Shown: positions 1,290-3,307, counted from the stretch's first letter. The stretch is 4,063 nt of DNA from a virus (IMGVR_UViG_2778261543_000002); one strand, 5' to 3'. Program-made: numbers and translations. The notes: a model not told the origin generated them from the sequence alone.

Positions 1290-1313
1290 ACAAAAAACCC
1301 GCCGAAGCGGGTT
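1290..1313 (-). terminator. rho-independent terminator of the hok transcript
   Basis: Minus-strand RNA aacccgc-UUCG-gcggguu (7 bp GC-rich stem, UUCG loop; plus 1296-1313) is followed directly by a U-run (plus A-run 1292-1297). On the plus strand the hairpin is not followed by Ts, so it is unidirectional. Confidence 0.6.
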
Positions 1314-1317
1314 AAGT

Positions 1318-1332
1318 GCGGGTGCATTGAGG
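1318..1332 (-). other. 3' fold-back (fbi-like) element of the hok mRNA
   Basis: Plus gcgggtgcattgagg (1318-1332) is the near-exact inverted complement of plus cctcaagcacccgc (1695-1708). In the minus-strand RNA the 5' GCGGGUGCUUGAGG can pair with the 3' CCUCAAUGCACCCGC (about 14 bp with one bulge). Confidence 0.5.
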
Positions 1333-1381
1333 ATGCCTGACACATCAGAGGTGGCGAGGGATTTCACCCCCGCCTGGTCTC

Positions 1382-1537
1382 TTACTCCTCAGGTTCGTAA
1401 GCTGTGAAGACAGCGACCTCCGTCTGGCCGGTTCGGATTCGTACCTCGCAGAGGTCTTTCCTCGTTACCAGTGCCGTCACTATGACGGTTAAACAGATGA
1501 CGATCAGAGCGATTAACATCGCCTTTTGCTGCTTCAT
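1382..1537 (-). CDS. hokD: Hok-family type I toxin, HokD/RelF-type (51 aa)
   Basis: ATG at 1537..1535 with AGGAG 9 nt upstream. Product MKQQKAMLIALIVICLTVIVTALVTRKDLCEVRIRTGQTEVAVFTAYEPEE: a single TM helix and a conserved Cys/charged tail, matching the E. coli HokD (RelF) sequence as I recall it. Stop TAA at 1384..1382. Confidence 0.88.
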   Translation of the reverse strand: MKQQKAMLIALIVICLTVIVTALVTRKDLCEVRIRTGQTEVAVFTAYEPEE

Positions 1538-1594
1538 AGCCTGCTTCTCCTTGCCTTTCGGCGCGTAAGAGGCTAACCTAGATTTGCCGTTCAT
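1382..1594 (-). CDS. mok-like upstream reading frame, in frame with hok (70 codons)
   Basis: ATG at 1594..1592 preceded by GAGG (8 nt spacer); no stop before the hok ATG, so the frame gives MNGKSRLASYAPKGKEKQA + Hok. Leader layout (GAGG-ATG ... gcaaggagaag...ATG) parallels the plasmid R1 mok/hok leader as I remember it. Whether it is translated is unknown. Confidence 0.4.
   Translation of the reverse strand: MNGKSRLASYAPKGKEKQAMKQQKAMLIALIVICLTVIVTALVTRKDLCEVRIRTGQTEVAVFTAYEPEE
1551..1579 (+). promoter_or_regulatory. sok-like antisense promoter (-35 TTGCCT, 17 nt spacer, -10 TAACCT)
   Basis: Plus-strand TTGCCT (1551-1556), 17 nt, TAACCT (1574-1579), lying inside the hok/mok leader and pointing against hok; same arrangement as the R1 sok promoter from memory. 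Hexamers are only moderate matches to sigma70 consensus. Confidence 0.4.
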
Positions 1595-1660
1595 AGATTG
1601 AGCCTCAGATTAATGTTAAGCGTCTTGCCGGACGCGTAATGTTAACTGGGGCTTTTCTCT
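1586..1660 (+). ncRNA. sok: Sok-like cis-antisense RNA (antitoxin of the hok locus)
   Basis: Predicted start about 7 nt after the -10. Transcript would be antisense to the mok start and SD (1592-1606), contains hairpin gcguc-uugccg-gacgc (1620-1635) and ends in a U-rich tract (1653-1660). Ends are approximate; inferred by analogy to R1 Sok. Confidence 0.4.
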
Positions 1661-1694
1661 GTCTGCCTTACAGTGGCATGCCTGAGGCAGACAG

Positions 1695-1708
1695 CCTCAA
1701 GCACCCGC
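1695..1708 (-). other. 5' end element of hok mRNA (pairs with the 3' fbi element; tac/ucb-like region follows)
   Basis: Minus RNA begins about GCGGGUGCUUGAGGCUGUCUGCCUCAGG. It is complementary to 1318-1332 and is followed by a local inverted repeat CUGUCUGCC...GGCAGACAG (plus 1661-1690), as in metastable hok mRNA 5' structures. Confidence 0.45.
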
Positions 1709-1712
1709 AGCA

Positions 1713-1741
1713 ATCTTACCGACACCGATAAGAAAACGCTA
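1713..1741 (-). promoter_or_regulatory. putative hok promoter (-10 TAAGAT; weak -35)
   Basis: Minus-strand TAAGAT (plus 1713-1718) lies about 6 nt upstream of the inferred mRNA 5' end; the -35 region is a poor match (TAGCGT/AGCGTT). Weak call. Confidence 0.25.
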
Positions 1742-1911: not shown

Positions 1912-1962
1912 TTAACCCCAACGGCAAATCGAATACACCACCAGCGCCACCGCCATCACCAT
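1912..1962 (-). CDS. candidate micro-ORF, 16 aa hydrophobic peptide MVMAVALVVYSICRWG
   Basis: Minus-strand ATG at 1962 (second ATG at 1956 has AGGA 6 nt upstream), stop TAA at 1914..1912, between the 273 aa gene stop and the terminator. Very short and GGTG-rich, so it could be chance. Confidence 0.15.
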   Translation of the reverse strand: MVMAVALVVYSICRWG

Positions 1963-1991
1963 TCCTACCGTTGCGAATGCTTCAGGCCAGG

Positions 1992-2813
1992 TCATCGTAA
2001 AATATCCTCCACACCTACCAACCCGTTCTGCTTCAGATATTCCATCGCCTTATCAGGCAAGCTGCTTAAACTATTGGCGTACTTTAAGGAGTGAGCCAGA
2101 CGCTTAACCCACATTGTTAATTCGCTAACCTGGTTACCTGGCACTGGCGACGCTACTGTCTGTTCCAGAACGTCATCAGGTACTACCGGCTCTACTGCCA
2201 ACTGACTGGCATATTTGTTAATGGTAACGATAAGCTCTTGCTCGGCCTCATCCAGACAATCACCAACACCTCGCCTGTCACCGTCAAAATCATCGAAATC
2301 GGCACGAATCCTGGCAACCTTCAGGATTGCGGACAACACCTCACTAGGAATTGCCGGATAGTTGGTTGACGTTTCCGCGATTTCCCGAAAATTATTGGTT
2401 GACGAATTCTTGTTTTCCCGAAAGTTTCCGGACTGAAGCATGGCGGCGCGGCAGGCGTTCCATATTTCGGCAGCAATATCGCGCTCGCTATCGGTTAATT
2501 TGTACGTGGAAACATAGCCAGAGAGCATTTCTACGTTTTCCGGAGTTGCTTCTTCCGGCACTACCGGCGCTGGCGGGGCGATGCGTCCAAGCAACTTATT
2601 TACCTCTTTCGCCATCGCGTCATATTTATCTAAATGGCGATTAGCTTCTAAGCAGACTCGGCGCATCTGATCTGAGTTAACTCGTTTAACTGGATCTGCT
2701 TCCAGCGATGCCAGCGCAATCCGTGCCAGTTCCATTTGTTCACCACGGGTAAGCCCGTTTTCAAGCGGATTTTTAATGAACAATTCAATACGTTCTTTGG
2801 TAATAGTGGTCAT
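1992..2813 (-). CDS. hypothetical acidic phage protein (273 aa) with internal repeats
   Basis: Track ORF 1992..2813. ATG 2813..2811 preceded by AGGAG with a 6 nt spacer; that SD overlaps the TAA stop of the upstream 87 aa gene (TAAGGAG). Contains an 11 aa tandem repeat (FRENKNSSTNN / FREIAETSTNY) and two PVVP[ED][ED]-type segments. No family recognised. Confidence 0.8.
   Translation of the reverse strand: MTTITKERIELFIKNPLENGLTRGEQMELARIALASLEADPVKRVNSDQMRRVCLEANRHLDKYDAMAKEVNKLLGRIAPPAPVVPEEATPENVEMLSGYVSTYKLTDSERDIAAEIWNACRAAMLQSGNFRENKNSSTNNFREIAETSTNYPAIPSEVLSAILKVARIRADFDDFDGDRRGVGDCLDEAEQELIVTINKYASQLAVEPVVPDDVLEQTVASPVPGNQVSELTMWVKRLAHSLKYANSLSSLPDKAMEYLKQNGLVGVEDILR
2361..2427. repeat. 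imperfect ~33 bp tandem direct repeat inside the 273 aa CDS
   Basis: Unit 1 (2361-2394) gttggttgacg-tttccgcga-tttcccgaaa-atta; unit 2 (2395-2427) ttggttgacg-aattcttgt-tttcccgaaa-gttt. The 10 bp blocks TTGGTTGACG and TTTCCCGAAA are each repeated exactly; GTTTCCG also recurs at 2372-2378 and 2424-2430. Confidence 0.6.
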
Positions 2814-2823
2814 GTGTTACTCC

Positions 2824-3087
2824 TTAACCCGCAGTGCTTTCAACTGATGAGGGGAACAAAATCCTTTCATCAAATCCGGCATTCATATCATGGACAGCAA
2901 CACACCAATCCATCGACGAACGATTATCAAGAGCCTCCATGATTTCATCCATGCGGCGCAGGTCATACAGGTAAATGCTTTTATCGCCAATGGTGTAAAA
3001 GCCAATTTTTTTCGGTGATGGACAGCGATCAAGAATTTCCTGTAATTCGTTCAACCATGCCCGTTCTTTTTTTGTCAAAGTTGCCAT
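2824..3087 (-). CDS. hypothetical protein (87 aa)
   Basis: ATG at 3087..3085 with AAGGA 8 nt upstream (track ORF 2824..3165 extends further but lacks an SD at its first ATG). Product MATLTKKERAWLNELQEILDRCPSPKKIGFYTIGDKSIYLYDLRRMDEIMEALDNRSSMDWCVAVHDMNAGFDERILFPSSVESTAG. Packed tightly between the 72 aa and 273 aa genes. No family recognised. Confidence 0.7.
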   Translation of the reverse strand: MATLTKKERAWLNELQEILDRCPSPKKIGFYTIGDKSIYLYDLRRMDEIMEALDNRSSMDWCVAVHDMNAGFDERILFPSSVESTAG

Positions 3088-3088
3088 A

Positions 3089-3307
3089 TCAGTTTTCCTT
3101 ATACGGATTAATTTTATTGTGCAGTGTGTTGAATGACGCCCATACCACGTCGTTATACAATTCAATAACTAGCTCAATTATTTTTCCGATTATCCAGACT
3201 AGGATTAACGGGGATATCGGTATCATCAACACGATAAACAGAATAAGAAACAGAAATTCTGTTGTTCTACTCTTTCGCGGATATTTTTTTCTAAATAATG
3301 TGACCAT
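3089..3307 (-). CDS. putative small single-pass membrane protein (72 aa), AT-rich gene
   Basis: Track ORF 3089..3307. Basic N-terminus (MVTLFRKKYPRKSRTTE) followed by one hydrophobic helix (FLFLILFIVLMIPISPLILVWIIG), i.e. positive-inside topology. Stop TGA sits 1 nt before the next ATG. Caveats: the region is visibly AT-rich and no clear SD precedes the ATG, so a chance ORF in a promoter region is not excluded. Confidence 0.45.
   Translation of the reverse strand: MVTLFRKKYPRKSRTTEFLFLILFIVLMIPISPLILVWIIGKIIELVIELYNDVVWASFNTLHNKINPYKEN

Follow-up and report, generated by a model that had tools for sequence, protein, structure and literature searches.

Our analysis confirmed that positions 1292-1741 (minus strand) of a 4,063-nt stretch of viral DNA (IMGVR_UViG_2778261543_000002; hereafter the window, meaning the whole stretch analysed) carry a complete and self-contained hok/sok-family type I toxin-antitoxin locus. 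The locus is of the prophage "hokW/sokW" type, with a toxin identical to HokD. Our data demonstrate its sequence elements, their predicted alternative folds and the conservation of both. More broadly, we found that the complete form of this locus is the rule, and that the relBE-linked hokD of Escherichia coli K-12, though often treated as the reference, is a minority, truncated derivative.

A preliminary description of this DNA had proposed an intact, autonomously regulated hok-type locus, and the leader with a mok start, the sok-like promoter, the fold-back complementarity and the terminator that it listed are all present as stated. Any implication that the locus is unusual is not supported. 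The complete form is common, the K-12 relBE-linked form is in the minority, and the locus is an ordinary, textbook module of a type whose mokW, hokW and sokW genes are already annotated in the 933W record (AF125520.1) and have been tested in experiments.

Elements and predicted folds of the locus

The hok coding sequence (1382-1537, minus strand; 51 aa plus stop) lies behind the Shine-Dalgarno (SD) sequence GGAG (1547-1550, minus strand) and encodes MKQQKAMLIALIVICLTVIVTALVTRKDLCEVRIRTGQTEVAVFTAYEPEE. Its product is identical to K-12 HokD/RelF (b1562) at 51 of 51 residues, in agreement with the identity that had been proposed. The toxin matches the Pfam family HOK_GEF (PF01848) at 3e-23 (cutoff 22 bits) and PHROG 251, "MokW-like host killing", at 7.8e-33, a family classed as moron. 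The mok reading frame (1382-1594, minus strand; 70 aa) starts upstream of hok at the predicted ATG (1594), runs for 19 codons and then continues in frame through hok, which it overlaps; this is the layout of the annotated mokW of 933W. We considered the in-frame mok as an unusual feature and rejected the idea, since an R1-type IncFII locus and 933W mokW are likewise in frame. A mok out of frame with hok in R1 is contradicted by the R1-type IncFII locus, whose leader ATG is in frame.

As a separate observation, a UACG tetranucleotide lies across the Tyr47 codon (window 1396-1399, mRNA 308-311) within the motif GCUUACGAA, and it is invariant in 27 of 27 aligned loci. UACG is the motif reported for A-to-I editing by TadA, which recodes Tyr to Cys in hokB; the same recoding has been reported in hokC, hokD and hokE (bioRxiv 10.1101/2025.08.07.668861).

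The full-length mok-hok mRNA is predicted to span 415 nt (1292-1706, minus strand), so that mRNA position i lies at 1707-i in the window. Its 5' end was placed by homology to the conserved start GGGTGCTTGAGG, and homologs align from mRNA position 1. By position, the hok promoter has a putative -10 hexamer TAAGAT (1713-1718, minus strand) 6 nt upstream of the mRNA 5' end, and a poor match, TAGCGT (1736-1741, minus strand), at the -35 position. Across 55 distinct upstream contexts, a -10-like hexamer (TAGAAT, TATAAT or TAAGAT) occupies -12 to -7 relative to the GGGTGC 5' end. On the plus strand, the anticipated sok-like antisense promoter (1551-1579) consists of a -35 hexamer TTGCCT (1551-1556), a 17-nt spacer and a -10 hexamer TAACCT (1574-1579); 933W has the same two hexamers at the same spacing. 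Only three of the six positions of the sok -10 agree with the consensus, and the sok -35 does not vary across 67 unique HokD-identical loci. Neither promoter, hok or sok, was picked up by a simple sigma-70 consensus scan of 1150-1950. Both are thus putative promoters, assigned by homology and position and not by consensus strength.

The Sok antisense RNA, of about 71-75 nt, is placed at 1586-1656 (plus strand) by mapping of the 933W sokW misc_RNA, whose start coincides exactly with the start at about 1586 given in the preliminary description. The predicted RNA begins with a single-stranded 5' tail, continues into a long hairpin and closes with a U-rich tail that reaches about 1656-1660; its fold has an energy of -32.9 kcal/mol (z -5.4). 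Sok is complementary to mRNA 51-121, which covers the ucb box, the mok SD and the mok AUG.

All regulatory boxes of the R1 type could be located on the minus strand. The tac box GGGUGCUUGAGG (mRNA 1-12; 1695-1706) has three partners: fbi when the RNA is full-length, ucb once it is truncated, and mRNA 19-29 while it is nascent; the last of these, placed by folds and conservation counts, is the 3' arm of the metastable 5' hairpin (1678-1688). The ucb or anti-SD box AAGCCCCAG (mRNA 53-61; 1646-1654) sequesters the mok SD in the predicted full-length structure and pairs with tac after truncation. The mok SD GAGG (mRNA 101-104; 1603-1606) is invariant in 27 loci, and the dcb box AGCCUC (mRNA 133-138; 1569-1574) pairs with it in the truncated RNA. 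Downstream of the coding sequence lie a stable 3'-UTR hairpin (mRNA 333-354; 1353-1374), which by analogy with R1 data (PMC9841398) likely protects the 3' end of the processed mRNA, and the fbi box CCUCAAUGCACCC (mRNA 375-387; 1320-1332), which is complementary to tac. The locus ends in its own intrinsic terminator (1292-1313), in which a stem (1296-1313) is followed by a T-run, as had been described.

Folding predictions, with elements defined according to Le Rhun et al. 2022 (PMC9841398), reproduced the full R1 folding pathway without constraints. The 415-nt minus-strand transcript has a minimum free energy (MFE) of -170.8 kcal/mol (z = -6.85 against shuffles), and in its MFE structure mRNA 1-12 (tac) pair with 375-387 (fbi), which is the 5'/3' fold-back complementarity noted earlier, and the mok SD is paired to ucb. 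Truncated RNAs ending at 356, 360 and 374 switched to the tac/ucb and mok SD/dcb pairings, with a Sok-target hairpin spanning mRNA 101-138; truncated RNA 1-368 folded closed and not open, which suggests that the open and closed states are energetically close. The first 30-45 nt (segments 1-30 and 1-45) formed a tac-containing metastable hairpin. The folding check proposed in the preliminary description therefore gave full-length and truncated structures that match the R1 model, the latter at three of the four lengths tested.

The Rfam model RF01794 (sok) matches 1532-1706 over its whole length with 110.7 bits (E 1.7e-25; gathering score 59). This match lies on the hok-sense strand (minus) and not on the Sok strand; therefore, what the model as built describes is the hok leader, to which Sok is complementary. 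Annotation pipelines that use RF01794 would put "sok" on the incorrect strand, at roughly double its true length. Two sets of weaker Rfam matches were rejected as terminator or hairpin look-alikes, namely isrK at 1292-1373 (30 bits; gathering score 50) and the sub-threshold matches to STnc30, PsrR1 and Thr_leader at 1805-1913.

Conservation, loop diversity and prophage setting

We aligned 27 full-length loci from six genera (Escherichia, Shigella, Kluyvera, Pseudocitrobacter, Erwinia and a further Enterobacteriaceae genus). The tac/fbi, tac/ucb and metastable helices were paired in 95.1%, 98.4% and 98.7% of cells, respectively, compared with 35-54% in slid controls, a comparison that is inflated because the helices were derived from the window's own sequence. 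Double-sided changes occurred at nine pairs of the closed structure, and within tac/fbi one position covaries, from G-C to A-U in five Kluyvera-group sequences. Conservation of the leader, whose absence the preliminary description had counted among the grounds for refutation, thus extends across genera, with these three pairings kept at 95-99%. The genome Enterobacteriaceae MGYG-HGUT-00110 carries two complete hok/sok loci in direct tandem about 560 nt apart (2271-2687 and 2833-3250), and the two differ in target-loop sequence.

In a second comparison, among the 67 unique HokD-identical loci, mRNA 107-127 (window 1580-1600) was hypervariable. Pairwise diversity in this segment is 0.31, against 0.03-0.05 in the adjacent boxes. 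The segment comprises the loop and upper stem of the target hairpin, the 5' tail of Sok and mok codons 2-5; it occurs as 17 target-loop alleles, and the hairpin is retained in all of them. The two multi-copy genomes sampled, CP178302.1 and CP182556.1, which are related, each contain three co-resident complete copies with three different alleles. This pattern could tentatively be read as selection for orthogonal, non-cross-reacting Sok/hok pairs, although we lean somewhat against regarding this as the explanation. If it were correct, each co-resident prophage would retain its own addiction module, not covered by the Sok of its neighbour. In either case, the alleles form a naturally occurring panel on which antisense specificity could be tested.

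The window is a mosaic segment of a lambdoid prophage. All genes flanking hok are on the minus strand; among them are an HNH/DUF1364 gene fragment (2-226), a DUF1367/NinB-like gene (223-822), a DUF4014 gene (3089-3307) and, downstream of hok, an ORF of 83 aa (894-1145). Several PHROG families whose function is unknown are also encoded in the window. The equivalent gene block of homologous E. coli prophages lies between the replication genes and the Q antiterminator. The best explanation is that the hok/sok locus is an independent transcription unit, that is, a moron, in a nin-like early region, and the earlier reading as a prophage moron fits both these neighbours and the Q-antiterminator synteny. 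The closest match to the locus has 98.2% identity and the closest match to the window has 96% identity over 81% of its length; no copy identical to the locus was found among 80 IMG/VR loci.

Three further features of the window were observed. A hydrophobic 27-aa ORF (1912-1995, minus strand), MTWPEAFATVGMVMAVALVVYSICRWG, matches no PHROG or Pfam family, and its start overlaps the stop of an upstream 273-aa ORF by 4 nt (ATGA); it may encode a small membrane protein that has escaped annotation. A 13-bp hairpin at 1875-1907 is set between an A-run and a T-run (CAAAAACCCCGG...CCGGGGTTTTTG) and is the site on which several sub-threshold Rfam sRNA matches cluster; it looks like a bidirectional terminator, which would insulate hok from the upstream phage genes. 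Finally, the top match of the window in the phage database is PP818812.1, "Actinobacillus phage vB_Apl-pPE4" (52% coverage, 94% identity), which, as an E. coli lambdoid sequence with a Pasteurellaceae host label, looks like a host misassignment or contamination.

Proposed mechanism and alternative explanations

We consider an R1-type mechanism highly probable for this locus, a judgement that concerns family membership and architecture. Transcription of this copy, 3' processing of its mRNA, the action of Sok and a killing phenotype are what we infer by homology to plasmid R1's hok/sok module. In the proposed model, a weak promoter would produce a stable 415-nt mok-hok mRNA. In the nascent RNA, the metastable hairpin would hold the 5' tac box; once the RNA is complete, fbi at the 3' end would pair with tac, and ucb would hide the mok ribosome-binding site. 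Through this closure and masking, the full-length RNA would be translationally inert and unable to bind Sok. Slow 3' trimming would then remove fbi, so that tac pairs with ucb and the mok SD shifts into the dcb hairpin, which would be both the translatable form and the Sok target. The unstable Sok of about 71 nt, made from the opposite strand, would pair across the mok start and block translation of mok and of the coupled hok, and the duplex would be marked for RNase III. When Sok is no longer made, be it because the element is lost, the prophage is induced or the host is shut off, the hok mRNA pool would be translated, and the 51-aa Hok peptide would depolarise the inner membrane.

The role of the locus is most likely prophage addiction and/or help with lysis after induction, by analogy with what has been reported for hokW-sokW. 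Exclusion of other phages is also a possible role. R1 hok/sok has been reported to exclude T4.

Two other explanations have to be weighed against a functional, autonomous locus. The locus might be a structurally intact but functionally silent and decaying passenger, whose promoters are too weak or whose Hok is not activated. The weak hok -35 and sok -10, with no promoter called by the consensus scan, are compatible with this reading, and HokD-type toxins may need the Tyr47-to-Cys editing by TadA for full toxicity. Moreover, hokA, hokB and hokC on the chromosome are reported not to mediate post-segregational killing (as cited in bioRxiv 10.1101/2025.08.07.668861), and therefore integrity of sequence does not guarantee activity. 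However, every regulatory box and the ORF are intact here, and the full leader is kept in 77 of 80 IMG/VR contigs with an identical toxin; the tac, fbi, ucb and dcb pairings would not survive decay. The sok hexamers are those of 933W, in which sokW is expressed and HokW is toxic, and overexpressed HokD is reported to be toxic as well. We therefore regard a silent passenger as improbable.

Even less credible, to the point that we give it hardly any weight, is the view that hok is not autonomous and is transcribed mainly by read-through from the upstream phage early genes, as in K-12 relBEF, with a vestigial leader. The common minus-strand orientation of the flanking genes would allow such read-through, and K-12 hokD is indeed co-transcribed with relBE (PMC3598666). 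In the window, however, the strong terminator-like hairpin at 1875-1907 separates the upstream genes from hok, and the -10 hexamer keeps a fixed distance from the conserved 5' end despite wholly different upstream contexts. In addition, the fold-back and its switch need tac at the very 5' end of the RNA, and the tac pairings are conserved. An independently transcribed R1-type module thus remains our preferred reading.

Comparison with K-12 hokD and known hok/sok systems

In MG1655 the gene order is relB-relE-hokD-rem, within the Qin prophage. K-12 hokD encodes the same 51-aa toxin as the window, and its DNA is 98% identical over a stretch that opens shortly ahead of the hok SD and takes in the 3' UTR, fbi and the terminator; the alignment starts at mRNA position ~156, about 15 nt before the hok ATG, and ends with the terminator. 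By contrast, mRNA 1-155, with the hok promoter, tac, ucb, the mok SD and start, dcb and the sok gene, is missing from K-12, where relE stands instead. The absence of relBE upstream of the window's hok, as claimed in the preliminary description, was borne out: a hok leader of about 155 nt occupies the place of relE, and the window does not have the K-12-type arrangement of relB-relE before hok without leader or sok. That K-12 hokD sits behind relBE without a leader, as had been stated beforehand, is seen directly in the sequence comparison. The view that hokD lacks its own regulatory elements reportedly goes back to Pedersen and Gerdes in 1999. Nothing specific on hokD was found in Faridani 2006 or in Wen & Fozo 2014. 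Leader remnants upstream of K-12 relB, which would be a sign of simple insertion, were not found within 7 kb. We also considered the 83-aa ORF (894-1145) as K-12 Rem, an identity that would have extended the synteny with Qin, and rejected it, as the two have no similarity at all; the downstream neighbour therefore differs from K-12 as well.

The 452-nt query (positions 1290-1741) was covered to at least 80% in 3890 of 5426 complete E. coli genomes (median, two places per genome), and the K-12 relE-hokD junction occurred in 1167 of the same 5426. The three IMG/VR contigs (of 80) without the full leader are truncated at position 156, and two of them carry relE. By these counts, loci are complete as a rule, and the K-12 form is a derived exception. 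PGAP labels only "hokD" at such loci and omits mok and sok, and the name "hokD" hides that most of these loci are complete hok/sok modules, unlike their K-12 namesake.

Compared with hok/sok (parB) of the conjugative plasmid R1, the window's locus, which resides in a prophage, has the same order of boxes (tac, ucb, mok SD/ATG, dcb, sok promoter, hok SD/ATG, fbi) and the same predicted folding pathway. In the R1-type IncFII locus, the tac/fbi pair U4-A384 of the window is replaced by C-G, a compensatory change. The R1 toxin has clearly diverged from that of the window; HokW and R1 Hok are 44% identical (PMC8621323). The window's Sok hairpin exceeds that of R1 by 16-18 nt, giving a Sok of about 71 nt in the window.

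The hokC (gef)/mokC/sokC locus is about 74% identical to the window over leader and coding sequence and has the same boxes, but it occupies a fixed chromosomal position and its Sok hairpin is shorter. The K-12-like hokC copy of E. coli ECDA1023 has a diverged 3' end without fbi, homology being lost just after the 3'-UTR hairpin (alignment columns ~360-455), which is consistent with disruption of this hokC locus.

The closest described relative is the right-end region of 933W and Sp5 (VT2-Sakai), which is 91.4% identical to the locus over 405 nt. Mapped onto the window, the AF125520.1 annotations fall at 1382-1594 (mokW), 1382-1537 (hokW) and 1586-1656 (sokW misc_RNA); in both phages' DNA and the window mok has 70 codons in frame and hok encodes 51 aa, and all these loci lie in lambdoid prophages. 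HokW and the window's toxin are identical at 46 of 51 residues, the five differences being C-terminal (FVDYESEK in HokW, FTAYEPEE in the window). The loci also differ at mok codons 2-6, where the 5' tail of Sok and the target loop lie, in the hok -10 (TAGAAT in 933W, TAAGAT in the window) and in position, near the right end of the 933W genome as opposed to the nin region in the window. The window's 3' terminator sequence is absent from 933W because homology stops after fbi. Other phage records label the same locus "HokD toxin", "MokW" or mok/hok, and a 2025-26 preprint survey reports that hok is enriched in prophages. For this closest relative, Takada et al. 2021 established that hokW-sokW is a functional type I toxin-antitoxin system, detecting the sokW RNA on northern blots; mitomycin C causes a depletion of sokW and a rise in HokW that depend on RecA, and hokW-sokW approximately doubles Sp5 phage release (PMC8621323).
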